Shown here: piece after piece, positions 18,578 to 44,447 of the stretch
Layout of the letters: each line of letters opens with the position of its first letter
Numbering within the stretch: the first letter of the stretch is position 1
Assembly: GCA_963674965.2 (NCBI GenBank)
Contig: CAXXFL010000002.1
Location: 448,001 to 512,000 of the forward strand
Reading direction: 5' to 3'
Length of the DNA: 64,000 bases
Source of the DNA: a bacterium
GTDB taxonomy: Bacteria > RBG-13-61-14 > DATKZS01
Notes under the pieces: generated by a model
Database searches by the model: none
Told to the model about the DNA's origin: nothing
What the model saw: only the letters and a program-made list of their open reading frames with translations
Made by a program: the position numbers and the translations under genes

Positions 18578-21121
18578 ATGAGAATGAGGAAGGCAAGATG
18601 GATCGTAATGGGATTGATATTGTCAGCTTCCCTGGTTGTCATGGCTCAGGGAGTTCCGAACATGATCAACTACCAGGGACGGCTGTTCGACGGAACGGGC
18701 CGTCCGGTTGACGACCCGGCCCTGGCCATGGATTTCTCGCTTTGGGACCAGGACGTAACGCCCGAGCAGGTAACCGACGAGACGGTCTATTTGTGGGGCG
18801 AGTCGGTCGTTCCCCTGGCCCATGGCGAGGTGACGGACGCGAGCGAGGTGGTCTCGGGATGGGGCAGCACCGTTTACGAGACCCCCCGCGACTACCTGAT
18901 CGACTACGCGAACGGGACCATCTCCCGGGTGGCCTCGGGCACGATCCCCAACGGCCAGATGGTATACGTGGATTATGAATGGACCGACTACGGGACCGAG
19001 ATATGGAGCGAGACTCAACTGGTGGAGGTGGTCAACGGCCTGTACGAAGTGAAACTGGGCGATTTCGTTCCCCTCGGCTACTCGACCTTTACCGGCTCGA
19101 CCGTATACCTCGAGGTGACGGCCAACCTGGAGATACTCTCGCCGCGCCGGCGTCTGACGTCGGTGGTATTCGCCATGCGGGCCGACGACGCCATGTCGCT
19201 GGGGGGGCATTCCTATTCGGCCTTCTCTCTTGTCGGCCACGGCCACGACTTCGCGGACATCTCCGGCCAGGCCGCGGACGCGCAGGTCCCGGATGACATT
19301 ACCATCGTCTACGCGCAGGACTCTGGACAGCTCGGCGGCCAGGCCCCCGCGGCGTACGTGTCGGCCTCGGGCGACACCGTCACCGGCGCGCTCGAGGTTG
19401 GCCAGGACCTGACGGTGCAGGGCGACGCCGCCGTACTGGGCGGAAACATTGGACTCGGGAGGTCATGGGACTCGGATTACGGGATAGTCAACGGCTTCTC
19501 CGCGGCCCCTCCCCATGGAGCGCGTCTGTACGGGACTAACCATGGAATCATGGGCGCATGGGCCGGAGCTCCTTACAACAACTACGCCTTCCTCGGCTCC
19601 GAGGCGTACGGCGTTTACGGAATGTGCGGGACCTCATCGGACACGGGCAGCAGATACGGAGGGTTATTTCAAGCCACCAGCCCGATCTACGCCATTGGCT
19701 CCATGGCCTACTCCAACGGATACGGCTCCTATCCGTCCATCGGCGTCTATGGCAGCGGTTATAACGCCAGCTCGGGAGAGGCTTACGGAGGATACTTCGA
19801 GACTTCAAACTCGGGCACGGGAACGCATTACGGGGTCTTCGCCGGAGTTCAGGACGATTACGCCGGTTGGTTCCAGGGCGGGCGCGTGCATATAGGAAAC
19901 GCCGGGACCGAGAATTACGTTAACGGCGACGGTGACCTTTACGTGGAGGACGATCTCGAGGTTGACAACAACGCTCGAGTTGCAAACGACGTGTTCGCGG
20001 GAGGCGATATATCCGTTGGAGGAGCGGGCGATATCGGCGGCAACCTGTCGGTAACGGGAGGGGCCACGATCGGAGACAATCTATACGTCGTGGGAGGGGC
20101 CACGGTTGGACAAAACCTATCCGCGGGCGGCGACGTGTACATAGAGGGGACCATCGGCATGGGAATCGCCCCGAGTTCAAGCTATGGGATCAGAAACAAC
20201 GCGGGTTCCGCGCCCTCGACGGGAGCTTATCTTTACGGCACGGGCTCGGGAGTGCAAGGAAGATGGGCAAGCGACCCTAACGACCATCTTGGATACATGG
20301 GCGCCTCAAACCTCGGGGTTTATGGCCGGGCCGGAAATTCCGACGAGACGGGAGAAAGATATGGAGGGCGTTTCGAGGCGCATAGCCAGGGCTATGCTTA
20401 TGGAGTTTCTGGTACCGGCTACGCTTTCGACGCCGGTTACTCATATGGATTGGTAGGAATCGCGTACGCCACGGCCAGCGGCGCCACGGGACCGGCTTAT
20501 GGCGCATATTTAAGGGCTTACGCCAACGGCTCCGCCTATGGTCTTTACGTCGCCAGCGGCACCAAGAACTGGGTCAACCCCGACCCCGAGGACCCGACCA
20601 AGTCCATCGTTTACGCGACCCTCGAGGGCGGCGAGAACGGGACTTACTGGCGCGGCACGGCCAGGCTCGAGAACGGAATGGCCGAGGTCATTTTGCCCGA
20701 CCACTTCCGCAAGACCACCAGCCCCGACTACCCGGTGACGGTCACCCTGGGACTTCTCGGGGACTGCAACGGCATCATGGTGGCCGAAAAAAGCAACGAG
20801 AAGATCGTGGTCAAGGAACTTCGCGGAGGCACGAGCGACGCGGAGTTCGATTTCGTTGTCATGGGAAAAAGACTTGGCTACGAGGAATACGAGCCCATAA
20901 TCGACAACGTGGATTACGTCCCCTTCCAGGGAAACAACTCGGGCATGGACGAAAGCGATATGACCACCCAGGAATACTACGATAATTACTCCGAGGGCCT
21001 AAAGAAAATCTTCAAAAAGAACGGTATCCTGGACGAGGAAGGAAAAGTCAACGAAAAGCTCTTCGAGGAAAAGGGATGGAAAAACAACAAGGTGAAAATG
21101 CCAAAGGAACAAGAAAGATAA
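18578..21121 (+). CDS. Secreted Gly/Tyr-rich fibre-like protein (INYQGRL module; putative C-terminal chaperone-like domain)
   Basis: ATG 18578 after GGAGGG; signal peptide ending VVMA; YGVYG repeats; C-terminal TKNWVNPDP..LEGGENGTYWRGTARL..AEVILPDHF. Confidence 0.8.
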   Translation: MRMRKARWIVMGLILSASLVVMAQGVPNMINYQGRLFDGTGRPVDDPALAMDFSLWDQDVTPEQVTDETVYLWGESVVPLAHGEVTDASEVVSGWGSTVYETPRDYLIDYANGTISRVASGTIPNGQMVYVDYEWTDYGTEIWSETQLVEVVNGLYEVKLGDFVPLGYSTFTGSTVYLEVTANLEILSPRRRLTSVVFAMRADDAMSLGGHSYSAFSLVGHGHDFADISGQAADAQVPDDITIVYAQDSGQLGGQAPAAYVSASGDTVTGALEVGQDLTVQGDAAVLGGNIGLGRSWDSDYGIVNGFSAAPPHGARLYGTNHGIMGAWAGAPYNNYAFLGSEAYGVYGMCGTSSDTGSRYGGLFQATSPIYAIGSMAYSNGYGSYPSIGVYGSGYNASSGEAYGGYFETSNSGTGTHYGVFAGVQDDYAGWFQGGRVHIGNAGTENYVNGDGDLYVEDDLEVDNNARVANDVFAGGDISVGGAGDIGGNLSVTGGATIGDNLYVVGGATVGQNLSAGGDVYIEGTIGMGIAPSSSYGIRNNAGSAPSTGAYLYGTGSGVQGRWASDPNDHLGYMGASNLGVYGRAGNSDETGERYGGRFEAHSQGYAYGVSGTGYAFDAGYSYGLVGIAYATASGATGPAYGAYLRAYANGSAYGLYVASGTKNWVNPDPEDPTKSIVYATLEGGENGTYWRGTARLENGMAEVILPDHFRKTTSPDYPVTVTLGLLGDCNGIMVAEKSNEKIVVKELRGGTSDAEFDFVVMGKRLGYEEYEPIIDNVDYVPFQGNNSGMDESDMTTQEYYDNYSEGLKKIFKKNGILDEEGKVNEKLFEEKGWKNNKVKMPKEQER

Positions 21122-29951: not shown

Positions 29952-30223
29952 TCAATCCTCCCAAGGCATGGTATCGGTCCTTACCTTATAGCATACTTAG
30001 GCATTCCCAGTCACGCGGCGCCAAATGGACTCACGCGTGAGCCGCCCTCCCCTGAGTTGATCAATCACGTATGACTCGCTTTCAGGCCGCGTCCGCATGG
30101 AGAAAAATGATTTCGATCCGCATTGATCGCTTGCTTTCCCCGTTGCCTTGGGCTATTAGACGATAGACGACTCCGTCCGAAGGGACGTTGAAAAACACCA
30201 GAGCAAGAAAGAAGTCAATCGCC

Positions 30224-31804
30224 ATGAAAGTATTACTTATCAATCCTTATTATCCCATCTCGGAGGGGCCGTCCCCTCCCTTGGGGCTGGCCTTTATCGG
30301 GGCCGCCCTCGAGGCGGCGGGCGTGGAAGTGAAGCTCTTGGATTACGTGGTCTTCCCTTACGACAAGGAGGAACTCAGGTCGGTCCTCCTCCGATTCCGG
30401 CCGCGCTTCGTGGGACTGACGTGCGTGACCATGAACTTCCATGAGGCCATGCGCGTGGTGAGGGACGTGAAGGACATTGCCCCGGATATCGCGACGATTA
30501 TGGGCGGCCCCCACGTGACCTTTTGCGCGGAGGAAACGCTGAAAGAGCACCCGGAGCTCGATATCATAGTCCTGGGCGAGGGCGAGAGGACGATAGTCGA
30601 TCTGGCCAAGGCCGCCGAGGCGGATGCGCCCCTGGATGAGGTCCGAGGAATAGCGCTAAGGAGCGGCGCGCGAATAATACTGACGCCCCCCTCGGTGGGA
30701 CCGCTCGACCTGAACTCACTGCCCCTTCCCGCCCGCCACCTGCTGCCGCTCGGACGCTACAAGGCCCTCAACCTGGCCATCAGCATGACCACCAGCCGGG
30801 GTTGCCCCCACAAGTGCATCTTCTGCGTGGGACGACGCATGGTGGGGTCCAGGGTCCGCTACCGAAGGCCCGACCTTGTGGTGGACGAGATGGAATATCT
30901 GGCGGGCCTGGGCTTCTCCCAAATCAACGTGGCCGACGACCTGTTCACGGCCAATAAAAAGCATTGCCTGGAAATCTGCCGCGAGATCGAGCGCCGGGAC
31001 CTCAAGATCAAATGGTCGTCCTTCGCCCGGGTGGACACCGTCACGGCGGAGCTTCTGGCCATTATGAAAAAGGCCGGCTGCCGATCGGTCAGCTTCGGAG
31101 TGGAAACCGGAAGCGCCAAGATCATGAAGACCATCCAAAAGGGCATCACCATCGATCAGGTGGTCGAGGCCGTGAAAGCCTCCAATGAGGCGGGGGTCGT
31201 TCCCTGCGCCTCCTTTATCCTGGGCCTGCCCGGCGAAACCGAGGATACCCTGCAAGAGACCGTCGCCTTCGCCAGGAAGCTGAACAAGATGGGCGTGAAG
31301 TACGGCTATCATCTGCTCGCGCCCTTCCCCGGCACGGCCGTGAGGGAAAAAAGCCAGGAATACGGACTTCGCGTGCTGACCGACGACTGGTCGGAGTACA
31401 ACGCCGATCGCGCCATCGTGGAGACGGACGGCGCGGACAAAGCAACTCTTGACAAGGTCGTCGTCGATTGGGAGGAGAAGGCCCTGACCTATCTGGCCAT
31501 CATCACCGAGCTTGTGGCAAAAGGAGAGGCGGGCCAGGAGGAGGCCGCCTTGCTGGCCAGCCTCGATCGGAACATGCAAACCTACGGGCTGATGATGGAC
31601 AAGGCCCTCGAGACCCATGGCCGCTTTCAAGACGACTCTCAATCCCCGGACGGCCGGCTCGAGCGGCTCCTCGAGCGCCTCGCCGCCAACGGCTACGCCC
31701 CGGCGCCGCTGAAAGCCTCACTCACCCACGCGCTGGAAAAAGGAGTCCTTTCCCGCCGGGAGCAAGACGGCCAGGTTGAGTGGAGTTGGAGGGATTTTCT
31801 ATAG
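30224..31804 (+). CDS. Cobalamin-binding radical SAM protein
   Basis: PPLGLAFIGA, GGPHVT, GEGE, TSRGCPHKCIFC, FGVETG, FILGLPGET. Confidence 0.92.
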   Translation: MKVLLINPYYPISEGPSPPLGLAFIGAALEAAGVEVKLLDYVVFPYDKEELRSVLLRFRPRFVGLTCVTMNFHEAMRVVRDVKDIAPDIATIMGGPHVTFCAEETLKEHPELDIIVLGEGERTIVDLAKAAEADAPLDEVRGIALRSGARIILTPPSVGPLDLNSLPLPARHLLPLGRYKALNLAISMTTSRGCPHKCIFCVGRRMVGSRVRYRRPDLVVDEMEYLAGLGFSQINVADDLFTANKKHCLEICREIERRDLKIKWSSFARVDTVTAELLAIMKKAGCRSVSFGVETGSAKIMKTIQKGITIDQVVEAVKASNEAGVVPCASFILGLPGETEDTLQETVAFARKLNKMGVKYGYHLLAPFPGTAVREKSQEYGLRVLTDDWSEYNADRAIVETDGADKATLDKVVVDWEEKALTYLAIITELVAKGEAGQEEAALLASLDRNMQTYGLMMDKALETHGRFQDDSQSPDGRLERLLERLAANGYAPAPLKASLTHALEKGVLSRREQDGQVEWSWRDFL

Positions 31805-31837: not shown

Positions 31838-32812
31838 GCCTTTAAATCGAGAGGAGATTACTATGGCTAAGAAAATATCTTTATCAGACATATGTGGCTT
31901 TCTATTTATCGCCGCCTTTTTTCATGTTGGATGTAATAATATCCCAAGTGAACCGGGCGAAAGCGTCACTCAGCAGAAATGCTTGCAAGGCAGTTTTAAA
32001 TATTATGAATCACATATTGATGATTGCCTCGATATTGCAAAGGAGATGGATGATCAGACCAAAAAAGGGAAAGTGTATTATATCGCGGCGTCATCTAAGC
32101 ATGCAAAATTGCATAAATTGTTCAAAAAAGCAGAGTCAAATAATGGCGATTACCGAGATTTAAGCAAAGCGGCGGATGAAGTGATTGCCCTTTACAATAA
32201 GGCCTTGGAATGCGATTTAGATGCGGGCGCCAAGCTGGAAATTTGGGAAAGTAAATCATCTGCATACGCCTATAGATCGGAAGGCGACATGAAATATCTA
32301 CCGGAGGTAGAACGAGAAAGTCTTAATTGCCGGCTTCATATATTACTATTGTCAATTACAAACCAAAAGGAAAATGAAATCATACAATATGAAAAATACC
32401 CGATATGCTCTAAACCATATGGCCAAGTAGATTATTCTAAATGCTTTGAAACTTATGAAGAAAGGTCAAATTATGTAGAAGAACAAAATCGTATTATTGG
32501 CGATCGATATTCTTACACTTTTGAATTTATTTCTTGTTGTCTTGACAATCGCCATGGCCAAAAGGAGAAGAGCAAAAATGATTGTCTAGAGTTGATCGAC
32601 ACGTACGTTGTCGATCAAGAATTGAAGAATGAGTTAATTTACTACGTACGCGAGGAAACCGTTCCAAAAAAACTTGGCCACTTTGATATTCCTGAACTAA
32701 AATAACCAACCGTCCTTGCATTAGGAGGCTATCATGTTTCCGCAAAACAAAGTCAGATTACTCTCCACAGTAATTTTCATCCTTCTTTCATGCCGCGCTT
32801 CCCTTGCCGAGG
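31838..32812 (+). repeat. ~975-bp direct repeat, copy 1 (lipoprotein gene plus first 26 codons of the next gene)
   Basis: Near-identical to 37703..38677 (offset 5865), from GCCTTTAAAT to GCCGAGG. Confidence 0.92.
31863..32705 (+). CDS. Cys-rich predicted lipoprotein (A1), immunity-like
   Basis: RBS GAGGAG; MAKKISL...FHVGC lipobox-like; low GC; near-identical to 37728..38570. Confidence 0.8.
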   Translation: MAKKISLSDICGFLFIAAFFHVGCNNIPSEPGESVTQQKCLQGSFKYYESHIDDCLDIAKEMDDQTKKGKVYYIAASSKHAKLHKLFKKAESNNGDYRDLSKAADEVIALYNKALECDLDAGAKLEIWESKSSAYAYRSEGDMKYLPEVERESLNCRLHILLLSITNQKENEIIQYEKYPICSKPYGQVDYSKCFETYEERSNYVEEQNRIIGDRYSYTFEFISCCLDNRHGQKEKSKNDCLELIDTYVVDQELKNELIYYVREETVPKKLGHFDIPELK

Positions 32813-33723
32813 AAGGATTTAAGGCCCCTTCCGCCGGCGGCATTTTCAAAGTACCGATCGAAAACAAGGGCGAGGTCACCATTCACGGGAACGCTATCGA
32901 CGTTTTCCGCCTCGAGGAAAACCCCTCGGATATCGTCACGGGCATAAGCTTCCAGCCTTTGCCCGGCGGCGATTTATTATCTGGCGAAACGGTTATTTTA
33001 ACCATCACTCCTTTGAACCTCGGAGAGATCGAGGACCGCGAGGCATGCGAGGCGTTTAAAAATCCCAAGGTTTACATCAAAACGGCCGCCGCCGAGCCTC
33101 TGGCCAATTACGAGGACATTATCGAAATACCGGTCGAGCCGGCGGGTTTCCACAATTTAAGCGTCGATTACGAAAACTGCGTTATTTACTGGAACTGGGA
33201 ATCCTGCAGCTGCTCGGTCGGCGGTTGCGGCTTCAGTTCGGGAAGCGACAGCCGCGAGATTCCCGGTTGCGAGTGGGCCAAACCGGACGACAACGAGATA
33301 CTCTCGACGGACATACCCGGCCGCCTTTCCGGCGACGACCCGCGAGCTCGAGTCGGAGTATTGGGCGCCCCTCTTTTCGAGGAGTACGCCGCGTCCTTTC
33401 TCGACTCGATCAACGTCGCCTCCCGGAGCGTCGATCCCTTCACGGACCTGGGACCCGATCTGTACGTTTCCGAGGGCGTCAGTGTCCTCGTCATCCCCTC
33501 GGCGTCGCTTTCGCCTTACGTAAATTCCGCGTCTTTCATCTCCAATCTGGACGAGTACGTCTCGGCTGGCGGCGTCGCCGTTGTTTTCTCACAGGCCACC
33601 GGGGATGACTGGTCCATCGTCCCCGGTTCTCCCGAGGCATTCGGTTATACTCAGGACGTTCTTTGCTATCGCGGCGGCGCCCGTCCCTCCGCCTATCATC
33701 TTTTGATATCCAGCGAGGCAAGC
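32733..33723 (+). repeat. ~990-bp direct repeat (module B), copy 1
   Basis: Near-identical to 36481..37471 (offset 3748); identity ends after GCGAGGCAAGC. Confidence 0.92.
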
Positions 33724-33834
33724 GCGAAGTCCGACGTTCATACCGACGGGTCCTTCGTTAACCGATCAAGGGGGCCGGTTTTCTGGGGGCCTCGAATTTG
33801 CCGGCAATTTTGCCGCATGGGAATAATTTCTTGA
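32734..33834 (+). CDS. Secreted protein module B1, probably 3'-truncated
   Basis: RBS AGGAGG; signal peptide ending ASLA; CSCSVGGC; VLVIPS..LDEYVSAGGVAVVFSQ (GATase1-like by eye); tail runs into the next promoter. Confidence 0.7.
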   Translation: MFPQNKVRLLSTVIFILLSCRASLAEEGFKAPSAGGIFKVPIENKGEVTIHGNAIDVFRLEENPSDIVTGISFQPLPGGDLLSGETVILTITPLNLGEIEDREACEAFKNPKVYIKTAAAEPLANYEDIIEIPVEPAGFHNLSVDYENCVIYWNWESCSCSVGGCGFSSGSDSREIPGCEWAKPDDNEILSTDIPGRLSGDDPRARVGVLGAPLFEEYAASFLDSINVASRSVDPFTDLGPDLYVSEGVSVLVIPSASLSPYVNSASFISNLDEYVSAGGVAVVFSQATGDDWSIVPGSPEAFGYTQDVLCYRGGARPSAYHLLISSEASAKSDVHTDGSFVNRSRGPVFWGPRICRQFCRMGIIS

Positions 33835-33859
33835 CACATTGATACGCAAATGTTATGTA
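33831..33859 (+). promoter_or_regulatory. Sigma70-like promoter for the 33931 gene
   Basis: TTGACA 33831-33836, 17 bp, TG-t-TATGTA. Confidence 0.5.
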
Positions 33860-33930
33860 CTGATGGATCAGGGGAAAATCGGATAATATCCAATCAGCCG
33901 AATCTATGGAGATCAAGGGGGTATTGATAG

Positions 33931-35580
33931 ATGGCCGGCAGAGCAAAGCCACTTATAATCGCGGTTGTGATATTGTTTACTTTTATGATTACAATAGCTT
34001 ACGGAATCGAGATAACAAGGGAGGAGCCGCTGGAGCGCGAGGCCATTTGGCTTGAACTGATCGAGCCGAAATTTACTCCGTATTACATTAATGTTTGGGA
34101 CTCTGACGGAGGAGTGACGGTTGCCGCTCGAACAAGTGAACCCATTTCATTCAGCGCACGAGACTCAGAAGACACGCAGCTTGATGAGCCAGAATTAGTC
34201 AGGAATTATGGCATTGTAAAAGCTCAGATTCATCCACTAAATACATCAGGGCATTATTCATTTAAAATAATCCCAGACTATCCGGAAAATCAATTCTCAA
34301 CCGACATTTCCAATCCTGGGACGGCAACGTTTAGGGCATCCGTACCCGGAAGCTATCGCATCGTACCTGAGTTTTACACTAGTGACGGCAAATTAATCGT
34401 GGTATCAAAAGGCCCTGAAGAACCAAATCAAGATGAGATGTTTGAGGCAAATTTAACGACATTTTCTATTAAAGTTAAAGATACCTGCAGAAGAAAAGTA
34501 TATCAAGTTGATTGTGAAAGCGAGGAAACAAATCAAAACTGTAAAAATATTTTTGGAGTGAATGAAATCGTAGAATTCAATATAATTATGGGAGATTCCT
34601 TATTACAGACATTTAGAGGCGATTGGACGCATAGCAATATAGACGCAGGTGACTTTGGATATAATGATGTCTATGCCGTTGATCCTGGTAGCACTAGTAT
34701 GGCTTACCCACGCGTTTTGGCTGAGGCCCATGAATACATCAATGATGCTATACCGATGTTTCAAGCCTCTACTACAGCAAATATTGCTGATACAATTACC
34801 GTAAAATTCAATAAGCGAGCAGGACATGATGGAGAGCCATTAATCGTAGCCAGACAAAAAGAGACATACAATTTCAAAATCTCTGAACCAAAATATTTTA
34901 TCCCAGTAGACTATGACCCGGCTATTCATCCCGATTATGTTCAACCTTGTAATAGCGGAGAGAGAGGAACGAAGTACTGCTCTGACTTGAATGCATATGG
35001 CCCGGAAGGAGACATTTCAACTGGGCAATCAATGGGAATTAATGCGGGATATTATCTCAAATTAGAGCCTTCTCAAGCTTGTTTCAGGAATATTCTTATT
35101 AGAGATAATTTCACAAACTGCGGAAATACATTAGGGCCAAACAACTGTATTAAATGGGTATGGCCAAATGGTGAAACTTACTGCCCTGCACTTGGAACAA
35201 CTGAAGGAGATACAAGCGGAACAATACCGATAGGTATTTGGGAGATGAATTTTGACAATATTTATAGGGATAAAGCAAAAACGGGCCTTTTCCCATTGCA
35301 ACTAATGAATGAGGTAGCGGAGATTTATAAATATCCTGTAAGAATCAAGATTGAATGGAAATCAACGTTATCTTCAGCGGGCTCTTGGAAAAATATTGGT
35401 CGATCAGGTTTTTGCGCGTATTTTCATCCAAATGGCCAAGCAAATGCGAGAAGAGTTGTCGACAGAATTGGTGATGGTGATACTCTCGGTTATCCGGAAA
35501 ATCCATGTAACAATAATATTGATGCCTTATATTACACTGAGTCTTCGCTCAAAGGTCCTTGGCTGAGACCATCGCACTAG
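33931..35580 (+). CDS. Secreted AT-rich Cys-containing protein (C), candidate effector
   Basis: Signal peptide ending IAYG; C-terminus SGFCAYFHPNGQANARRVVD...LYYTESSLKGPW. Confidence 0.78.
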   Translation: MAGRAKPLIIAVVILFTFMITIAYGIEITREEPLEREAIWLELIEPKFTPYYINVWDSDGGVTVAARTSEPISFSARDSEDTQLDEPELVRNYGIVKAQIHPLNTSGHYSFKIIPDYPENQFSTDISNPGTATFRASVPGSYRIVPEFYTSDGKLIVVSKGPEEPNQDEMFEANLTTFSIKVKDTCRRKVYQVDCESEETNQNCKNIFGVNEIVEFNIIMGDSLLQTFRGDWTHSNIDAGDFGYNDVYAVDPGSTSMAYPRVLAEAHEYINDAIPMFQASTTANIADTITVKFNKRAGHDGEPLIVARQKETYNFKISEPKYFIPVDYDPAIHPDYVQPCNSGERGTKYCSDLNAYGPEGDISTGQSMGINAGYYLKLEPSQACFRNILIRDNFTNCGNTLGPNNCIKWVWPNGETYCPALGTTEGDTSGTIPIGIWEMNFDNIYRDKAKTGLFPLQLMNEVAEIYKYPVRIKIEWKSTLSSAGSWKNIGRSGFCAYFHPNGQANARRVVDRIGDGDTLGYPENPCNNNIDALYYTESSLKGPWLRPSH

Positions 35581-35618
35581 GCACAAATACCATGAATAAT
35601 TGAACAATTAGTAAGGAG

Positions 35619-36440
35619 ATGGTTATGAGTCGCGAGGTATCAATCATTATTATTGTTATATTAGGTTTGATCTACTCCATTACCGGATGTAAAAATAAGA
35701 ATATCCCAGAGGAAAAGTCCGATAGTCCAAATATTACAGATAACCAATGCTTATCCAATGATTTTGAAATTAGCGCAAACTCTTTCCAGCAATGCCTTAA
35801 TATTGCCAAGACAACTGATAATCCAGATAAAAAATGCCGTATCTATTTCAGAGCCGTATTATATAAAAGGCAGGAAATACTCAAATTGCCTCAAAGCACA
35901 GAAGATAAGGATTATAATTTCGAAAAGATAAGTGAATTGGTTAATGAGCTTATTAATTTCGCGGATAAATCTTTAAAATGTGATTTAGACTGGCGTACTG
36001 AACTAACAATTTATCAACAAAAGTCATGGGCTTATGGCATGAAAACTAATTACGGCCTTAACCAAGAGCCGGGTTTGGATGAAAATATAATTTACTGCGA
36101 TCTTCATATATTAAGGTTAACGGATGAAAAATTGATAGAAAAGGACGCCGTCAGATATACTGACTCTTTCCCGTTATGTTCTGAAGAATTCAGAAATAAA
36201 TCTCTTAAATGCTTTAATACAACCGGAGAGAGAAAAAATTATATTAATAACCAAAATAACCTCTACTTTAACAAGCGAAAGTTATTCTCCTTTTTACAAA
36301 GTCGATGTAGAAATACTACTAATAAAACGGATACATTTGGAGAATGTATGGAAATGATTGATACAATCATCGATGACAATGAACTTAGAGATGAGTTGCT
36401 TAGTTATATTGGACCTCCGCCTAATCCTTCACCACAATAG
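35619..36440 (+). CDS. Cys-rich predicted lipoprotein (D), distant paralog of A1/A2
   Basis: RBS AAGGAG; ITGC lipobox; shares CLxIAK, CDLD, CxLHIL, PxCS, KCF and CxExIDT with A. Confidence 0.8.
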   Translation: MVMSREVSIIIIVILGLIYSITGCKNKNIPEEKSDSPNITDNQCLSNDFEISANSFQQCLNIAKTTDNPDKKCRIYFRAVLYKRQEILKLPQSTEDKDYNFEKISELVNELINFADKSLKCDLDWRTELTIYQQKSWAYGMKTNYGLNQEPGLDENIIYCDLHILRLTDEKLIEKDAVRYTDSFPLCSEEFRNKSLKCFNTTGERKNYINNQNNLYFNKRKLFSFLQSRCRNTTNKTDTFGECMEMIDTIIDDNELRDELLSYIGPPPNPSPQ

Positions 36441-36481
36441 AAACAATATAATTGCACTCTCTAAAATATCAGGAGTAGATC

Positions 36482-37696
36482 ATGTTTACGCAAAACAAAG
36501 TCAGAGTACTCTCCACAGTAATTTTCATTCTTCTTTCGTGCCGCGCTACCCTTGCCGAGGAAGGATTCAAGGCCCCTTCCGCCGGCGGTATTTTCAAAGT
36601 ACCGATCGAAAACAAGGGCGAGGTCACCATACACGGGAACGCCATCGACGTTTTCCGCCTCGAGGAAAACCCCTCGGATATCGTCACGGGCATAAGCTTC
36701 CAGCCTTTGCCCGGCGGCGATTTTTTATCGGGCGAAACGGTTATTTTAACCATCACTCCTTTGAACCTCGGAGAGATCGAGGACCGCGAGTCATGCGAGT
36801 CGTTTAAAAATCCCAAGGTTTACATCAAAACGGCCGCCGCCGAGCCTCTGGCCAATTACGAGGACATTATCGAAATACCGGTCGAGCCGGCGGGTTTCCA
36901 CAATTTAAGCGTCGATTACGAAAACTGCGTTATTTACTGGAACTGGGAATCCTGCAGCTGCTCGGTCGGCGGTTGCGGCTTCAGTTCGGGAAGCGACAGC
37001 CGCGAGATTCCCGGTTGCGAGTGGGCCAAACCGGACGACAACGAGATACTCTCGACGGACATACCCGGCCGCCTTTCCGGCGACGACCCGCGAGCTCGAG
37101 TCGGAGTATTGGGCGCCCCTCTTTTCGAGGAGTACGCCGCGTCCTTTCTCGACTCGATCAACGTCGCCTCCCGGAGCGTCGATCCCTTCACGGACCTGGG
37201 ACCCGATCTGTACGTTTCCGAGGGCGTCAGTGTCCTCGTCATCCCCTCGGCGTCGCTTTCGCCTTACGTAAATTCCGCGTCTTTCATCTCCAATCTGGAC
37301 GAGTACGTCTCGGCTGGCGGCGTCGCCGTTGTTTTCTCACAGGCCACCGGGGAGGACTGGTCCATCGTCCCCGGTTCTCCCGAGGCATTCGGTTATACTC
37401 AGGACGTTCTTTGCTATCGCGGCGGCGCCCGTCCCTCCGCCTATCATCTTTTGATATCCAGCGAGGCAAGCCCCGTCTGGAATGAACTAGGCAACTCTGG
37501 TTTTTGTGCCTATTTCTATCCAAATGGAAGCGCCAACGCAAGGAGAGTGATCGATAAGCTAAGTGAAAACGATTCTCCTGGCAATCCCGATGGTCCAACT
37601 TATCCATGCGCGGAGAATGGAAACTCATTGTATTACACTACAACTTCACCTAGAGGGCCTTGGGTGACTCAATCTAGTATTCCATTGCCAAATTAA
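36482..37696 (+). CDS. Chimeric secreted protein: module B2 fused in-frame to a variant C-type C-terminus
   Basis: Near-identical to B1 up to LLISSEAS (37471), then PVWNELGNSGFCAYFYPNGSANARRVID...LYYTTTSPRGPW. Confidence 0.8.
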   Translation: MFTQNKVRVLSTVIFILLSCRATLAEEGFKAPSAGGIFKVPIENKGEVTIHGNAIDVFRLEENPSDIVTGISFQPLPGGDFLSGETVILTITPLNLGEIEDRESCESFKNPKVYIKTAAAEPLANYEDIIEIPVEPAGFHNLSVDYENCVIYWNWESCSCSVGGCGFSSGSDSREIPGCEWAKPDDNEILSTDIPGRLSGDDPRARVGVLGAPLFEEYAASFLDSINVASRSVDPFTDLGPDLYVSEGVSVLVIPSASLSPYVNSASFISNLDEYVSAGGVAVVFSQATGEDWSIVPGSPEAFGYTQDVLCYRGGARPSAYHLLISSEASPVWNELGNSGFCAYFYPNGSANARRVIDKLSENDSPGNPDGPTYPCAENGNSLYYTTTSPRGPWVTQSSIPLPN

Positions 37697-37702
37697 TGAT
37701 TT

Positions 37703-38677
37703 GCCTTTAAATTGAGAGGAGATTACTATGGCTAAGAAAATATCTTTATCAGACATATGTGGCTTTCTATTTATTGCCGTTTTTTTACATGTTGGATGTA
37801 ATAATATCCCAAGTGAACCAGGCGAAAGCGTCACTCAGCAGAAATGCTTGCAAGGCAGTTTTAAATATTATGAATCACATATTAATGATTGCCTCGATAT
37901 TGCAAAGGAGATGGATGATCAAACCAAAAAAGGGAAAGTGTATTATATCGCGGCGTCGTCTAAACATGCAAAATTGGATGAATTGTTCAAAAAAGCATTG
38001 GGGAATGAGGGCGATTTCCGAGATTTAAGCAAAGCGGCGGATGAAGTGATTGCCCTTTACAATAAGGCCTTGGAATGTGATTTAGATGCGGGCGCCAAGC
38101 TGGAAATTTGGGAAAGTAAATCATCTGCATACGCCTATAGATCGGAAGGCGACATGAAATATCTACCGGAGGTAGAACGAGAAAGTCTTAATTGCCGGCT
38201 TCATATATTACTATTGTCAATTACAAACCAAAAGGAAAATGAAATCATACAATATGAAAAATACCCGATATGCTCTAAACCATATGGCCAAGTAGATTAT
38301 TCTAAATGCTTTGAAACTTATGAAGAAAGGTCAAATTATGTAGAAGAACAAAATCGTATTATTGGCGATCGATATTCTTACACTTTTGAATTTATTTCCC
38401 GTTGTATTGACAATCGCCATGGCCAAAAGGAGAAGAGTAAAAATGATTGTCTGGAGTTGATCGATACGTACGTTTTCGATCAAGAATTGAAGAATGAGTT
38501 AATTTACTACGTACGCGAGGAAACCGTTCCAAAAAAACTTGGCCACTTTGATATTCCTGAACTAAAATAACCAACCGTCCTTGCATTAGGAGGCTATCAT
38601 GTTTCCACAAAACAAAGTCAGAGTACTCTCCACTTTAATTTTCATTCTTCTTTCGTGCCGCGCTACCCTTGCCGAGG
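37703..38677 (+). repeat. ~975-bp direct repeat, copy 2
   Basis: Near-identical to 31838..32812. Confidence 0.92.
37728..38570 (+). CDS. Cys-rich predicted lipoprotein (A2), immunity-like
   Basis: LHVGC lipobox-like; 280 aa; copy of A1 with clustered substitutions. Confidence 0.8.
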   Translation: MAKKISLSDICGFLFIAVFLHVGCNNIPSEPGESVTQQKCLQGSFKYYESHINDCLDIAKEMDDQTKKGKVYYIAASSKHAKLDELFKKALGNEGDFRDLSKAADEVIALYNKALECDLDAGAKLEIWESKSSAYAYRSEGDMKYLPEVERESLNCRLHILLLSITNQKENEIIQYEKYPICSKPYGQVDYSKCFETYEERSNYVEEQNRIIGDRYSYTFEFISRCIDNRHGQKEKSKNDCLELIDTYVFDQELKNELIYYVREETVPKKLGHFDIPELK

Positions 38678-38724
38678 CATGTCCACCCCGAGTCACCACC
38701 CTGGGAATATTAAATCCGGCGTAG
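38599..38724 (+). pseudogene. Truncated third copy of module B (signal peptide only)
   Basis: MFPQNKVRVLSTLIFILLSCRATLAE, then unrelated sequence to TAG; homology ends at 38677. Confidence 0.75.
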
Positions 38725-38886
38725 TGTTGCCATTAACCCAAGCCAAGCCTGTAACTCTTCAATAATGAAAAGGTTTGAAAAATAAAGCGTTGAAAAAAAG
38801 TTAAAACGGCGGAAAGATTTAAACCGCGTTGACCGATTGCTTGCCCCGCGGTGTTTTGCTAAATTCAGCGGGCTCGCTTCCCCTTC

Positions 38887-40266
38887 TCAGTCTTCGGCCT
38901 CTTTCTCGCGCTTTTTGAATTCCCACCATACCCAGGCGACGGCGAAGACGCCGCCCACCACGTGGGAGGAGGCGATGGCGACCCAGGCCCCGGCGGGACC
39001 GATCGAGTGGTGGAGGACGGTGACTAAAGGTATGGCCACGAAGATGAAGCGGGCGAGGGTAATGATGAGGGGAGGAAGGCCCTTGCCCAGTCCCTGGAAG
39101 GCCCCGCCCAGCACGAAGACCTGGGACACGAAGACGTAGGTGAAGCCCACTATGCCGATGTACTCGAGCCCGTAGCCCGAGATGACCTGGTATAGTACCG
39201 GGTCTTCGGTACGGTTGAAAAGGCCGATGAAGAACTCGGGGAAACATATAAAGACCATGCCCATGGCGCCCGAGAAGACGGCGGCGAAGAACCCGCCGGT
39301 CCAGGCCGAGCGCTTGGCCCGGGACAGGTTTCCGGCCCCGTAGTTCTGGCCCACCATGGACACGACCCCCAGCATGAGGCCTATCATGGGCAGCACCGCC
39401 AGCATGTCGAGCTGGGCGCCCATGCCGTAGGCGGCGGTGGCGCCCTCGTACTGGTTTAGCACCCTGAGGAAAATCATGGTCGCGAACCAGGCCGACATGT
39501 TGCGGCCCATCATGGGCACTCCGACCCGCAGTATCTCGATAACGTGGCGCGGATGCCAGTGGTAATTGCAAAAGGACAAGGTCCAGTTGGTCTTGCCCCG
39601 CTTCAAGTAAAATATCAGCAGGACGCAACCCACTCCCCGGCCGATGACCGTGGCCAGGGCCCCGCCCATTACGCCCATGCCCAGCCAGCCGAGGTGAAGA
39701 CCGAATATCCGGTCCTCCGGCCCGAAAATCAGGAGGGGGGCCAGGACGAGGTTGATCGAGAGACTGATGACGGCCAATACAAAGGGCGCCACCGAGTTGC
39801 CTTCCCCCCGCAGGATGTTGGCCCCGATCAGGCTGAACATGATGGTCACGTTGCCCACCAGGATGATCTTAATAAAGTCGTGGGCCGTTTCGATCATGGA
39901 CTCGTCCATTTTCAGGACCCTGAAATAATGGCGGTTCAAGGGAAGTAAAATCACGGTGGCGGAAATGGATAGTATGGCCATCAGAATAATGGCGTGCATG
40001 GCGGCGTTGTCGGCCTCGTTATATTCGCCCTTGCCGATCAGGCGGGCCACGTAGGAGGTCACGCCCGTGGCCAGTCCGGTCGCCATCATGATGATGAACA
40101 TCTGGAGATTGGCGGCGTTGACCACCGCTGAAAAGGCCTCGGGCCCGAGCTGGGCGATGAATACGCGGTCTAAAATTCCGAACAGGGGCTGGATGGCCAT
40201 CTGCCCGATAATCGGGGCGCTGAAGAGGAGCAGGACAACGGGGATGCTTCCCCTGGTAAGGTCCAT
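38887..40266 (-). CDS. MATE family efflux transporter
   Basis: MDLTRGSI..FSAPII, ILRGEGNS, VGQNYGAGN, multiple TM helices; start could be upstream (TTG 40362; ORF open to 40473). Confidence 0.9.
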   Translation of the reverse strand: MDLTRGSIPVVLLLFSAPIIGQMAIQPLFGILDRVFIAQLGPEAFSAVVNAANLQMFIIMMATGLATGVTSYVARLIGKGEYNEADNAAMHAIILMAILSISATVILLPLNRHYFRVLKMDESMIETAHDFIKIILVGNVTIMFSLIGANILRGEGNSVAPFVLAVISLSINLVLAPLLIFGPEDRIFGLHLGWLGMGVMGGALATVIGRGVGCVLLIFYLKRGKTNWTLSFCNYHWHPRHVIEILRVGVPMMGRNMSAWFATMIFLRVLNQYEGATAAYGMGAQLDMLAVLPMIGLMLGVVSMVGQNYGAGNLSRAKRSAWTGGFFAAVFSGAMGMVFICFPEFFIGLFNRTEDPVLYQVISGYGLEYIGIVGFTYVFVSQVFVLGGAFQGLGKGLPPLIITLARFIFVAIPLVTVLHHSIGPAGAWVAIASSHVVGGVFAVAWVWWEFKKREKEAED

Positions 40267-40758
40267 GCCCCGACCGCGGGGGGGAACGGCCTCGGCCGCC
40301 GGCGGCTCGGGACAGGCGACGCCATGGTCTATTCCGATATTTTTTTTCCCGTCTTCAAACAAAGGCTTTCCCAGGTCGGCCCAAGGGCGCGCACGCGAAG
40401 GCAACCCGCCGCCGGGCGTGAATCGGATATCGAGTATCAAGAGTACACGTAGTCTCATGAAAATGCACGCCAATCAAGAGAAGGAACATTTTTTACGCCT
40501 CATGAAAAAATCTTATATCGGCGGCAAAGCCGACTTGGAGCGGGAAATCTTTCGCTTCTGATCTGGAAACTCGATTCCGCAAGGAAAAGACGCGCGGAGG
40601 GTCCCTGGCTAATAAAAGTAGCTTTAAGCCAGCACGCTCCTGATCCTGATTTTTACAACAGCCTATTAAAAAAAGGTTTTTTCTATCTCGATATCAATCC
40701 GGGCTTTTCCGTTTTATTAGATCGCTCTAATTTTTTTATGGAGGAGGAAAATTTTTTC

Positions 40759-40807
40759 TTGACAAAGGATTTAAAAGAAACTAAAATGATTTTAAAGGAT
40801 TTAAAAG
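40759..40807 (+). promoter_or_regulatory. Promoter overlapped by 14-bp direct repeats
   Basis: TTGACA 40759-40764, 17 bp, TAAAAT 40782-40787; AAAGGATTTAAAAG at 40764-40777 and 40794-40807. Confidence 0.7.
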
Positions 40808-40848
40808 TAGCTATGAGTAACATAAAGGACGATAAAGGAGCGAAGAAC

Positions 40849-41082
40849 ATGCCCTCGGAAATTCTTCTGACTCTTGAACAAGTGGCGGAAAGACTGGCCG
40901 TAAGCCGAAAGATGGTATTCGACTGGGTAAGAGCGGGCAAGATTCCCGGAGTTAAGCTCGGGCGCTTATGGAGGGTCAAGCAGAGCGCGCTTGACGAATT
41001 CATCAATTCCCTGGAGACGGTAGGACCCAACGACGACCAGCGCGGCCCCGACCGTGAGGAGGACGCGGATGAGGGCCGATAA
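40849..41082 (+). CDS. Excisionase-like (HTH_17/BldC-type) DNA-binding protein
   Basis: RBS AAGGAG 40835-40840; LLTLEQVAERLAVSRKMVFDWVRAGKIPGVKLGRLWRV. Confidence 0.88.
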   Translation: MPSEILLTLEQVAERLAVSRKMVFDWVRAGKIPGVKLGRLWRVKQSALDEFINSLETVGPNDDQRGPDREEDADEGR

Positions 41083-41186
41083 TTTAATCTCGGCCCTTAA
41101 GTTCGCCTTGGAGGTGTCAGGTCGCGTTTAACATATAAGACGCAGTGAGAGATAGCATCCATTCCAGGCGGAGGGAGGTCAGCGAA

Positions 41187-44100
41187 ATGGGACATCCTTA
41201 TCGGACGATGCCGGCCGAATCGGGTTCGGATAAAAAACTCAAGCGCAAAGCATATCTTGGTTACGCCCTCATCATTTTCAGCATATTCCTGTTAATTCTG
41301 ATGTATATATATCCTCCCTGGGTAGGGTACTATGAGCACGATAAGAAAGAAATCGGATACTATCTCTTAATGGATGATCAAAAAGCAAAGGAAGAAAATC
41401 AAGCCCTCGAGGTCGCGGTTGACATTGATCGCTTCTTGGGCCAGCTATTATTTATACTGGGACCGATCATCTGGAAGGCCCGCTCCTTGATAAGGGATTC
41501 CAGGGAGGAGACGGATTCGGAATATATATCGCGGGGACGAGAAGGAATCTTTGATAAATCCGCGATTGAAGAGTTTATTGAAGACGAACATGCCATCAGT
41601 GATCGGGATACCCTCTCCGGATTAAACCATAACCACAATCAATCCGGGTCATCGGGAATGGGTTCCTGCTTTGATAATAATGGAATCCAAGGTCCCTCGT
41701 CCAGTTCCGCGACTCAAAATCCTCGCTTGCCAATGGAATACGGAGTAAGAAGGTACTGGGACTCTGATGAAGATGGGCGCTTCATTGTGGAGCTATATGA
41801 AAATCTCGAGGAGATCGACCAGGATTTTATCAATAGTATCCGTAATGATCGAAGCCATGATGACGATTTATGGAAACTTGCCCGGGGCCTGGAGAACGGC
41901 GAGATTCAATATGAGAACGCGCTGAGCCATTACGTTTATTACCTTGGTCGGTGGAATTTATCGCGGGTCGCATGGGTCGTCTGCGGGGCCATGCTTCACG
42001 CCGCGACGGGAAATCCTAAAACGGCTGAAAAGCTGTTTGCCGAGGCCGAGGAAGCCGACCCGGAAAACGGGTTAATCTATTGCTTTCGCTTCCTTTGTCG
42101 CTGTGAGATGGGTGAGTTCACCGAAGCTTTAGAAGACCTTAATTCCCTTGTATCCACAGCTTCTGACTCACATTATTGGCCGAAATGGCAAAGTCTCTCG
42201 ACCAGGGGACGTTTTAAGCTCGAATATGTAAGCGCCGAGGAAGCCATTGAAGATTTTACCATACTGATAGATAACGGCTGGGAAGTGGGCGAGCATCTTT
42301 TCAATCGAGGCAAAGCCTATGCATCGCTGAAGAATTTTGAAAACGCCGTTTCCGATTTTACGGATGCCTTGCAGTCGGACCTCGTCGATCCCGGTCCCAT
42401 TCTCAGCGCAAGGGGCCAGGCCTTTTACGAAATGGGCCTGACCAACCTGGCGCTCGAGGATTTGGACGAAGCCATATCGATGGGCCTGCCCGAACACTCT
42501 TCGGAGGTATATTATTGCCGCGGCAAGATTGCCTTCGAGCGAGAGGATTTTCCCAAGGTGATCGAGTGCTTTCCCCAAACGAGTGCTTTCTGGGGTTATA
42601 ACTCGCGCACACATATCATGCGGGGCCTGTCCTATTGCCGCGTGGGTCAATTCGAACTCGCGCTAAAAGATATCAACTCCGCGTGCTCTGAAGAGGGGGC
42701 CATGCTCTCTTGGCGAAGCTACTGTCTTTGCAGGCTTAAAAGATATAAAGACGCCTTGAGCGACGTCGAACTGGTCAAGAAAAGGAATCTCGATGACGAG
42801 ACTATTTGCGAATGGGAGACAATAAGTCTTGCGGACTCGGAAGTACGTCTCGAATGGGGAAAGGCATATCTTCACGAGGGGGATTATTTTTCCGCCATCA
42901 AGGAATTCGGCATTGCCCTCGATGAAGACCACTGGATGGCCGAGTCCTACCTGGAGCGCGGCCGGGCCTATCTTTGTCTGGCCCAAGACGTGGGAAAGAA
43001 ACGAAAGAAAAAATCCGAGATTTTTATTGGAAGCTCGAGGGAATGCGATATTGTCATAAAGGGAGAAAAAGTCGCCCCCAGGCACGCCCGCGTTTTTCGC
43101 CAGGGCGCGGTCATAATGGTGGAGGACATGGGAAGCCCCCACGGGACCTACGCAGGCTATAATTTTAGACGACTGCCGGCGCACGTTCCCACCCCAATGG
43201 AGTTTTCCGGGGAGCTATTCCTGGGCGACCGCGCCTTCAACGTGCATCGTCTCAATGAGTTCGGTTTCTTCGATAGCGAGAACGGGAACGGAAGAAACTG
43301 CTATGACCGGGCGATCCAGGACCTTTCATGGGCGCTGGAATGCGACGCCGAGGACCTCGTGGCGCTCAGGCTTCGATCCGAGGCCTACTCGGGCAATCGA
43401 ATGCACGACGAGGCCATCGCCGACCTCACCGCCATCTTGCGGCTTCAGCCCCGCGACTTTGACGCCTTGGGGGCAAGGGCCGAAGCTTATCTGAATACCC
43501 AGCGTTACGAATTGGCCCTGAATGACTGCGACAAGGCCATTCATCTTCAACCCCACCAAGCGGACTTCCATCATCTTCGAGGTCGGGTCTACGCGAAAAG
43601 GGGCCAGATGGGCGCGGCCAGGAAAGACTATCAAAGGGCCCGGGAACTGGACCCGAAAAAATACACGATCAAGACCCGGCCCAAGAAAAGCACGGAGGCA
43701 AAGAGCGAGTTCAGACTGCCCGGCCGCTTCGAGCTGGAGAAATTCTTCAAGGACCATGTAATCGATATAGTCGAATCGCCCGAGCGATATGGTGAGATGG
43801 GTATAGACTTTCCCTATCCCATCGCGCTTCACGGACCGCCGGGATGCGGCAAGACCCACGCCGCCAACGTCCTGTTAAATTACCTTGGCTGGCCCAGCTT
43901 CACCATCAACTCCGGCTCGGTGGGCAACATGTACATCCACGAGACCCCCCGGCTGATCGCCGCGACCTTCGAGGAGGCCAAAGCCAAGGCGCCCGCGGTG
44001 GTCGTGATCGACGAGATGGACGCCTTCATGTGCAACCGCGATTATGAGAGGCGGGCTTTTCGCAACGAGGAGGTGGCGGAGTATCTGCGCAATCTTCAGG

Positions 44101-44447
44101 ACGCCTCGGAAAATCGCATCCTGATAATAGGCATGACCAACCAGATCGACATGATCGATCCGGCGCTGTTGCGGCGGGGCCGCTTCGATCACGTCATAAA
44201 AGTCGATTTTCCGTCAAGGGAAGAATTGAAGGAATGCCTGAGCGCTCTTCTTTCCGGTTACCCTTGCGTAAGGGGCCTTAACGTTAATTACGTGGCCGAC
44301 GCTTTGCGTTCGAGGCCATTGTCGGACGCGGGCTATATCGTGCGGGAGGCCGCCCGCCTCGCCTGCAAGTCGAAGAAGAAAAAAATAGACGACCTATGCC
44401 TGGTGAGCGCCCTCCAGGCGGCTATAAAGCAAAAGTCGTTCAACTGA
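41187..44447 (+). CDS. Membrane-anchored TPR-FHA-TPR-AAA+ ATPase protein
   Basis: Two N-terminal hydrophobic segments; TPR-like repeats; FHA-like IGSSRECDIVI..VAPRHA..EDMGSPHGTY; Walker A GPPGCGKT, Walker B VVVIDEMD, SRH DPALLRRGRFD. Confidence 0.85.
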   Translation: MGHPYRTMPAESGSDKKLKRKAYLGYALIIFSIFLLILMYIYPPWVGYYEHDKKEIGYYLLMDDQKAKEENQALEVAVDIDRFLGQLLFILGPIIWKARSLIRDSREETDSEYISRGREGIFDKSAIEEFIEDEHAISDRDTLSGLNHNHNQSGSSGMGSCFDNNGIQGPSSSSATQNPRLPMEYGVRRYWDSDEDGRFIVELYENLEEIDQDFINSIRNDRSHDDDLWKLARGLENGEIQYENALSHYVYYLGRWNLSRVAWVVCGAMLHAATGNPKTAEKLFAEAEEADPENGLIYCFRFLCRCEMGEFTEALEDLNSLVSTASDSHYWPKWQSLSTRGRFKLEYVSAEEAIEDFTILIDNGWEVGEHLFNRGKAYASLKNFENAVSDFTDALQSDLVDPGPILSARGQAFYEMGLTNLALEDLDEAISMGLPEHSSEVYYCRGKIAFEREDFPKVIECFPQTSAFWGYNSRTHIMRGLSYCRVGQFELALKDINSACSEEGAMLSWRSYCLCRLKRYKDALSDVELVKKRNLDDETICEWETISLADSEVRLEWGKAYLHEGDYFSAIKEFGIALDEDHWMAESYLERGRAYLCLAQDVGKKRKKKSEIFIGSSRECDIVIKGEKVAPRHARVFRQGAVIMVEDMGSPHGTYAGYNFRRLPAHVPTPMEFSGELFLGDRAFNVHRLNEFGFFDSENGNGRNCYDRAIQDLSWALECDAEDLVALRLRSEAYSGNRMHDEAIADLTAILRLQPRDFDALGARAEAYLNTQRYELALNDCDKAIHLQPHQADFHHLRGRVYAKRGQMGAARKDYQRARELDPKKYTIKTRPKKSTEAKSEFRLPGRFELEKFFKDHVIDIVESPERYGEMGIDFPYPIALHGPPGCGKTHAANVLLNYLGWPSFTINSGSVGNMYIHETPRLIAATFEEAKAKAPAVVVIDEMDAFMCNRDYERRAFRNEEVAEYLRNLQDASENRILIIGMTNQIDMIDPALLRRGRFDHVIKVDFPSREELKECLSALLSGYPCVRGLNVNYVADALRSRPLSDAGYIVREAARLACKSKKKKIDDLCLVSALQAAIKQKSFN

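Follow-up and report, generated by a model that had tools for sequence, protein, structure and literature searches.

A relocated segmental-duplication block carrying an AT-rich pair of candidate exported-protein and lipoprotein genes in a bacterium of the RBG-13-61-14 lineage

The analyses presented here concern a block of genes at positions 31838–38677 of a 64 000-nt stretch of DNA (the window) from a bacterium of the RBG-13-61-14 lineage (assembly GCA_963674965.2, contig CAXXFL010000002.1, positions 448,001 to 512,000), which a preliminary description had taken for a repeat-bounded array of secreted proteins, each followed by a Cys-rich lipoprotein, and hence for a candidate polymorphic effector/immunity system. 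Comparison with the rest of the genome shows the block to derive from a tandem segmental-duplication array, the larger copy of which lies on contig C6; the block is a piece of it that has been moved and rearranged. One supposed protein family (B) proves to be the repeated head of a giant gene, GIANT2, and the supposedly variable tip of protein C is its conserved part. We hold the structure and origin of the block to be settled with good confidence; the explanation that we prefer overall, with a little more belief than doubt, is a duplication array whose cargo is an AT-rich C–A pair (C, a predicted exported protein; A, a family of Cys-rich lipoproteins to which D also belongs) that would act as a cognate exported pair.

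A sister array on contig C6

The larger array, found by tblastn against the same genome, occupies positions 772463–784862 of contig C6 on the minus strand, in the order C_a, A_a, B_a, C_b, A_b, B_b, C_c, A_c, B_c; C_b is intact, C_a lacks its 5' end, which is lost at an IS3-family insertion element, and C_c is split by the same IS3. By blastn, window 31838–34101 is 96.7% identical to A_a–B_a plus the first 171 nt of C_b, and window 37467–38677 is 95.5% identical to the tail of C_a, A_a and the start of B_a, and it is this near-identity that makes the window block a rearranged second copy. One C–A type, that of C with D (w type), occurs in the window and not on C6. The array unit measures ~3.7 kb and comprises the first ~1027 nt of the giant gene, which encodes a surface protein, a further 170 nt, a C gene and an A gene; since the last C6 unit continues into the intact GIANT2, we infer that the ancestral order was C–A–GIANT2.

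Within the window, the gene order previously proposed, A1-B1-C-D-(B2::C')-A2-B3, was confirmed from open reading frames (ORFs) and pairwise similarities (Table 1): A1 and D share 31% identity over 253 residues (E 7e-39), B1 and B2 98% over 330 residues, and residues 486–548 of C match 333–398 of B2::C' at 52% (E 4e-20), a region that includes SGFCAYFxPNGxANARRV. The bounding repeat of ~975 bp and the second repeat of ~990 bp are equally real, blastn giving 975 bp at 96.4% identity for the former (R1) and 1004 bp at 98.2% for the latter (R2), lengths and identities that exclude a chance origin; a third copy of the initial 93 bp of B lies at 38585–38677. The insert begins at 31838, 34 nt past the stop of a B12-binding radical-SAM gene, and ends at 38677.

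IS3-family copies are found both inside and beside the arrays. One on contig C4 has an ORF matching HTH_Tnp_1 (L003:3422–3961, E 2e-5) and another matching rve (L003:3958–4974, E 2.9e-19) and rve_3, and ORFs of the same sizes as these two occur also in L001. Next to this C4 copy (L003:3422–4974) lies a lone a-type A gene (L003:5146–5955, minus strand), 91–92% identical to A1 and A2, in which homology extends over the A gene only (879 bp), the neighbours include neither C nor B, and the upstream junction is seen as a loose end in short-read contigs. The IS3-family element and a microhomology deletion between them broke three of the five C copies. The deletion concerns B2::C', an in-frame fusion in which codons 1–330 of the giant-gene head are followed by the closing 74 codons of an a-type C. 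Its C' part is 97–100% identical in amino acid sequence to the C-terminus of C_a; the fusion evidently results from a deletion whose ends were joined by a microhomology of a few bases, and it is in frame by chance.

B is the head of a giant gene

The last B copy on C6 lies in an ORF (L001:3–5510) that does not stop after 366 codons and that, completed as L027:988–9510, encodes the 2840 residues of GIANT2, with FG-GAP_3 (E 1.5e-20), FG-GAP, InhA-like_MAM and MG2 domains. Five B-type places match GIANT2 residues 1–348/349 at 93–96%, and at the nucleotide level the B copies are 97.5–98% identical to its first ~343 codons (97.5% over 1029 nt for B1). After window position 33760, about codon 343, B1 departs from GIANT2 and runs through a novel 24-codon tail to its stop; B_a and B_b have this same breakpoint, and in all three it is followed by the same 170 nt up to the start of C. 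In a paralogue, GIANT1 (3315 aa, L002:1175–11122, minus strand, upstream of the C6 array), a B-like domain of 35% identity extends ~70 residues beyond the end of B. The continuity with GIANT2, the common breakpoint and the longer domain of GIANT1 together show B to be a truncated giant-gene head, so that the earlier view of B as a secreted-protein family has to be given up. B pairs differ by a synonymous divergence (dS) of 0.023–0.048, and the B heads together with the 5' end of C (dS 0.02–0.08) have the appearance of conversion or recombination tracts.

In the collections searched, B has no relatives outside this genome. A search of 5.8 billion proteins matched proteins of its own genome only, the GIANT2 head matched one of the 13 genomes by which the phylum is represented, its own, no PDB sequence matched B at E up to 1, and the best score in the ESM Atlas (0.84) lies below the level that the tool treats as a lead.

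GIANT1, which carries FG-GAP and MG2 domains, is followed by a 384-aa ORF (L002:24–1178, minus strand), a putative transposase, and this by a 546-aa Ig-like fragment (P0001, L001:18010–19650, minus strand) with sub-threshold matches to Big_13, Big_3_3 and MG2; GIANT1 may be part of a longer gene split by insertion.

Composition and support for the assembly

The preliminary remark that A, C and D are AT-rich relative to the host was correct: GC content is 0.33–0.41 in A1, A2, C and D, against 0.583 for the genome, with a third-position GC content (GC3) of 0.32–0.35. B has a GC content of 0.56 and a GC3 of 0.67, the flanking genes a GC3 of 0.76–0.81 and GIANT2 one of 0.65, and over all C and A copies GC3 is 0.26–0.38. 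The block is the sole strongly AT-rich stretch in the window.

The assembly was checked against short-read contigs from X1 and X2, two runs on one sample from which the assembly may itself derive, and from X3, a second sample of the same study. That the block might be an artefact of collapsed repeats or chimeric joins we judge very improbable, even though the B2::C' junction at 37471 is bridged by none of the short-read contigs listed and one 284-nt bin (36964–37247) has no cover among them. The left edge is bridged by one contig (31000–31878) and the join from C–D into B2 is spanned by another (34042–36548), each with 0 differences, and the right edge is bridged in X1 and X2, with only 30 nt inside the insert, and in X3 by contig 38608–38781. 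Depth over B is ~97 in X1 and 64 in X2, compared with 16–18 over unique sequence, in agreement with the five B-type copies of the assembly, and depth over A agrees with its four copies. Moreover, the repeat copies differ by 1.8–3.6% and are thus not a single copy assembled twice, and the loose ends at 37467 and 37718 correspond exactly to the C6 and C4 paralogues.

X3 also yielded short, low-depth contigs (151–197 nt, depth 1.6–7) with matches of 97% or more to portions of the right flank and of A2, C and D (window 34432–38962). Two of them have a loose end, at 35084 within C and at 36251 within D, which hints at a related strain carrying a mosaic cassette.

Table 1. Genes and repeats of the block (window coordinates)
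Feature	Position	Strand	Remark
A1, a-type Cys-rich helical lipoprotein, 280 aa	31863..32705	+	Window copy without a C gene upstream
B1, truncated duplicate of GIANT2 head, 366 aa	32734..33834	+	Sequence match to GIANT2 5' end
Upstream region of C, 170 nt	33761..33930	+	Present in every duplication unit
C (type w), predicted exported orphan protein, 549 aa	33931..35580	+	ORF, paralogue comparison
D, w-type A-family lipoprotein, ITGC lipobox	35619 (or likelier 35625)..36440	+	273 or 271 aa
B2::C', in-frame fusion, 404 aa	36482..37696	+	Junction 37467–37471
A2, a-type lipoprotein, 280 aa	37728..38570	+	96% aa identical to A1
B3', stub of giant-gene head, 42 codons	38599..38727	+	26 homologous codons (signal peptide), then flanking sequence and stop
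Direct repeat R1, copy 1 (A1 and first 79 nt of B1)	31838..32812	+	blastn
Direct repeat R1, copy 2 (A2 and first 79 nt of B3')	37703..38677	+	blastn
Direct repeat R2, copy 1 (B1 head)	32720..33723	+	blastn
Direct repeat R2, copy 2 (B2 head)	36468..37471	+	blastn

Two details of the annotation may be added. For D, the ATG at 35625 is the likelier start by its Shine–Dalgarno spacing, and the database protein P0006 also begins at this second ATG. The promoter placed before C in the preliminary description has a counterpart in a TTGACA-17-TATGTA site at 33831–33859, within the 170-nt region, which agrees with the consensus and no more than that; in scans for promoters and terminators the counts did not exceed those of shuffled sequence.

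The C–A pair and its selection

In all five places where the C-terminal motif occurs, an A-family gene follows 31–38 bp past the C-type 3' end, as the preliminary description had it for the two genes that it saw. C and A diverge together into at least three types. Between A types dS ranges from 1.4 to more than 2.4, compared with 0.08–0.13 among the four a-type copies, and the C centre and most of A are saturated between types (dS above 1). The ratio of non-synonymous (dN) to synonymous divergence is 0.2–0.5 in every A, B and C comparison and 0.05 at the C-terminus of C. Because the a and b C-termini are about the same but their A partners (A_a and A_b) are only 47% identical, A tracks the centre of C and not its tip.

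The four a-type A copies differ by 43 non-synonymous and 27 synonymous changes where 81% non-synonymous changes would be expected (binomial p 1.6e-4). Since the genome holds no intact a-type C, this purifying selection suggests that A is useful without its own C. The retention of a-type A fits a protective lipoprotein, and other roles fit too. The orphan modules that were read into the locus stand in so far as there are A copies without a working C; C'–A2 has the look of such a module, but B2::C' is evidently a microhomology-deletion product and not a designed one.

These figures also bear on the view that the block is decaying foreign, AT-rich DNA, amplified by unequal crossing-over and insertion elements and now eroding without any present function. 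Three of the five C genes are broken, B1, B2, B3', B_a and B_b are all gene fragments, IS3 copies accompany the arrays, the composition looks foreign, and the searches made turned up a single metagenomic protein as a homologue outside the genome. Nevertheless, every A and C comparison bears the mark of constraint just described, most strongly at the C-terminus of C, the a-type A genes are significantly short of non-synonymous changes, and all seven A genes together with two full C–A pairs are intact, so that we find a block without function improbable.

The A/D lipoprotein family

Inspection by eye of all seven genomic copies of the A family and of the metagenomic protein P0005 reveals a hydrophobic stretch followed by [G/S]-C (VGC, TGC, WGC, PSC); in a-type A the lipobox is atypical at the -3 position, A1 carrying VGC. 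Eight Cys residues are invariant in the seven aligned A-family sequences. All seven genes are open, two of them stopping 11–13 codons early, and A1 is 93% identical to A_a of C6. The AlphaFold2 (AF2) model of A1 is all-helical, made of hairpins, with a predicted local distance difference test (pLDDT) score of 80 and a predicted template-modelling (pTM) score of 0.78. Its best Foldseek match has an E value of 0.014, with designed, TPR and 14-3-3 repeats, a generic likeness, and its best VIA match reaches Z 10.7 over 80 residues, below the level that the tool takes as meaningful for helical proteins.

No match above threshold was obtained for A1, B1, C or D in Pfam, NCBIfam, PHROGs and PADLOC, or for B2::C' and A2 in Pfam and NCBIfam. 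Four weak matches, to Glyco_hydro_42M (E 0.19), IcmJ_DotN (E 0.02), a protease family of PHROGs (E 0.061) and a Cas9 model of PADLOC (E 0.012), were taken as noise. Against 1.84 billion representative proteins A1 had four matches, three from its own genome and one foreign, the latter being P0005, a 35% identical singleton on a 3514-bp metagenome contig. The A profile found no locus in scans of genome, metagenome and viral contigs, P0005 as query found none in the metagenome scan, and among the 13 genomes of the phylum the A profile matched only its own. With hhalign no relation was detected between the A profile and the ankyrin-repeat gene upstream of GIANT1.

Protein C and its conserved C-terminus

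C has a long hydrophobic N-terminus (signal or anchor) and 11–12 Cys residues, and is laid out as a beta-rich N-domain, a variable centre and a conserved C-terminal motif (35368–35577). Against the C6 copies only its first 171 nt (to 34101) are ~97% identical. Two of the five C genes are intact. Between C_b and C_a, residues 91–170 are nearly identical (dS 0.04–0.055), which we read as a conversion tract, the centre has 42–72% amino acid identity (dS 0.55–1.7), and in the C-terminal core identity reaches 93% (dN 0.061, dS 1.17), values that argue for strong purifying selection rather than conversion. All five C-termini can be aligned, and 31 of the 78 alignment columns are invariant. The variable C-terminus on which the original proposal was built is therefore homologous in every copy and, between a and b, the most constrained segment of the protein; it is the centre of C that varies.

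A hidden Markov model (HMM) built from the C-termini matches only these five places in the genome, and the C-terminus is thus not a shared sorting tag; in NCBIfam no secretion-tail family was matched by C or B2::C', and SprA_N and PorP_SprF, of the type IX secretion system, were not found in the genome, control genomes being silent too. A lenient Pfam scan of six C-family sequences gave nothing in common, the C profile had no match among PDB sequences at E up to 1, and the best ESM Atlas score (0.82, fimbrillin and PKD-like clusters) lies below the tool's lead level. C alone and the C profile found own-genome proteins only among the 5.8 billion, C matched one of 61 genomes, its own, and the C-terminal profile found no locus in scans of genome and viral contigs. 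As the preliminary description had stated, no Rhs, CdiA, VgrG or PAAR motif is present in the block, judging by Pfam and NCBIfam.

We consider the original proposal in its strict form, a Sec-exported polymorphic toxin system with its variable toxin in the ~75-aa C-terminus, the downstream lipoprotein as cognate immunity protein and A1 and C'–A2 as orphans, to be quite improbable. The small lipoprotein gene that follows each C-type 3' end agrees with it, as do the resemblance of C'–A2 to an orphan C-terminus/immunity module, the lone A gene beside IS3 on contig C4, and the surroundings of the sister array, where an RHS-repeat protein lies 1.2 kb downstream and TSP3-repeat ORFs followed by Imm11 and DUF4304 genes are nearby; these surroundings are context, however, and not evidence. 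Against the strict form stand the homology and the invariant columns of the five C-termini, the 93% identity of the a and b C-termini beside A partners at half that level of conservation, the size of A (~250 mature residues), far bigger than a 70-aa C-terminus, the lack, by Pfam and NCBIfam, of any toxin or trafficking domain, be it RHS, TPS/CdiA, PAAR, VgrG, LXG, a MafB N-domain or TSP3, and the origin of the apparent orphan C'–A2 from a microhomology deletion onto the giant-gene head.

Likeness to known systems

Maf islands of Neisseria hold a mafA lipoprotein gene, a mafB toxin gene and a mafI immunity gene, along with orphan mafB-CT/mafI cassettes (PMC4287609, PMC7738311). The present genes resemble these islands in the Sec-type signal on the larger protein, the lipoprotein gene, the clustered variants and the truncated cassettes. 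They are unlike them in that Maf has a variable C-terminal toxin and an upstream MafA lipoprotein that serves as a secretion partner, whereas here the C-terminus is conserved, the centre is variable, and the lipoprotein lies downstream and diverges together with C; neither Pfam nor NCBIfam detected a MafB-type domain. A further paper is cited for comparison (PMC3482391). The esaG/tsaI genes of a type VII secretion system (T7SS) are described as tandem immunity paralogues shaped by homologous recombination (PMC9484751). Several non-identical small genes of protective type in tandem and recombination between paralogues are common to both; the differences are that the organism is of another type, that there is no T7SS, and that the units here also hold a large partner and a giant-gene fragment.

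With Rhs and contact-dependent inhibition (CDI) loci the arrays share their tandem arrangement, conserved stretches that permit recombination, truncated copies with a small gene downstream, and insertion elements. Unlike those loci, the block has no RHS, two-partner secretion (TPS), PAAR or VgrG domains, the C copies are homologous from end to end and do not carry unrelated tips, and it is a piece of an unrelated giant gene that forms the conserved spacer. Colicin and pyocin operons encode proteins with conserved ends and a variable centre, followed by a small cognate protective gene, the fold being shared and the specificity differing. Colicin immunity proteins are small, are not lipoproteins and bind the C-terminal killing domain; A, in contrast, tracks the centre of C, has ~250 residues and is a lipoprotein, and no colicin domain was found.

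Genomic neighbourhoods

Downstream of GIANT2 (C6, ~735000–764000) a 1505-aa signal-peptide protein with an RHS repeat (L026:9259–13776, minus strand) is followed by a HEAT-repeat ORF (L026:8408–9349, minus strand), a TSP3_bac-repeat protein longer than 2794 aa (L026:3–8384, minus strand) and three ORFs of 553–582 aa that start with a TSP3 repeat (L028). Two of these three are followed by small ORFs matching DUF4304 (E 1.3e-18) and Imm11 (E 7.4e-5), and this RHS/TSP3 stretch has the look of a true array of polymorphic toxins with orphan modules.

In the window, the B12-binding radical-SAM gene at the left edge of the block (30188–31804, plus strand) belongs to a large expansion, with 26 matches in the genome and 13–23 in each of 12 other genomes of the phylum (E up to 1e-40). 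In an empty-site comparison its only clear orthologue was found in genome G003 (74% identity), without the other neighbours that were checked. A small AT-richer patch beyond the block holds an ORF with an excisionase-type HTH_17 domain (40738–41082, plus strand), followed by a 1100-aa TPR-FHA-AAA ATPase protein (41145–44447, plus strand). Two further ORFs on the plus strand, of 911 aa (18386–21121) and 981 aa (21479–24424), matched nothing in Pfam at E up to 1e-4.

Proposed role of the pair

We suggest that the foreign-looking, AT-rich C–A pair is the real cargo of the array. C would be exported by Sec, its long hydrophobic N-terminus possibly serving as a membrane anchor, and its many Cys residues would speak for disulfide bonds, whether in the periplasm or outside. 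A would be a lipoprotein of helical hairpins with four likely disulfides that binds the variable centre of the C with which it forms a cognate pair, and the invariant 70-aa C-terminus of C would provide an activity or a contact common to all types. An effector with its protective lipoprotein is our leading guess for such a pair, though a tentative one. A more specific and somewhat more speculative form of this guess is that C and A are a Sec-dependent, bacteriocin-like effector and its periplasmic lipoprotein protector, in which the centre of C would set specificity for a target or partner, the Cys-bridged C-terminus would be a new warhead or docking module, orphan protectors (the four a-type A copies) would be hoarded, and cassettes would be swapped by recombination in conserved flanks; these flanks would be the 3' end of A with the giant-gene head and, opposite, the 5' end of C. 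The polymorphic effector/immunity reading survives in its downstream lipoprotein and in the co-divergence of the two proteins, but not in its variable C-terminus or in B as an effector.

Several observations weigh against a cognate effector and protector. Simple linkage would equally let C and A diverge together, the excess of broken C over broken A genes is not significant once gene lengths are allowed for (we estimate a chance of ~0.19 that all three hits fall in C), and the selection on a-type A may partly be older than the loss of a-type C or may reflect a role unrelated to C. The low dS of B may stem from conversion by the working giant gene and is therefore silent on any function of B. 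Binding of A to C and the activity of C are putative; C, C' and the C paralogues have no Pfam or NCBIfam match even at E up to 10, the AF2 model of C (six paralogue rows) has a pLDDT of 31 and is unusable, and the unbridged junction of B2::C' counts here too. A co-fold of C 190–549 with D 25–273 scored 0.00 and counts neither way.

C and A might instead be envelope or adhesion accessories of GIANT2, for example a periplasmic partner anchored in the inner membrane and a lipoprotein of the outer membrane, with the task of escorting, anchoring or processing the giant protein; duplication at the head of the operon would then have left the array as a by-product. The inferred order C–A–GIANT2, with gaps of 28–60 nt and Shine–Dalgarno sites, would suit such an operon, as would the single conserved tract formed by the 3' end of A and the giant-gene head; helical-repeat lipoproteins, furthermore, are frequent adaptors. 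However, the GC3 of the C and A copies, set beside that of GIANT2, argues for a separate origin, GIANT1 has no C–A upstream but an unrelated ankyrin-repeat gene, three divergent C–A types are found with one near-invariant giant-gene head, the window copy has C–A units and no giant gene, and with hhalign no relation was detected between the C profile and GIANT2. We regard this role as unlikely. Among the roles considered, then, we place the effector with its protector first, as a possibility still to be held loosely, service to GIANT2 second and rather doubtful, the want of any function third and lower again, and a toxin with a strictly variable tip last, with very little credence.

Finally, what is left once the array is recognized is a pair of protein families without detectable relatives, one metagenomic A apart, in a thinly sampled phylum, in several co-diverging types, with a lipoprotein partner on which selection persists even where the large one has been lost. 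If they are an effector and its protector, they would represent a Sec-dependent antagonism module of unusual layout, with a variable centre, an invariant tip and a lipoprotein guard. If they are not, the locus would still illustrate clearly how the duplication of a segment that includes a giant gene's head makes arrays that mimic the grammar of toxin loci.

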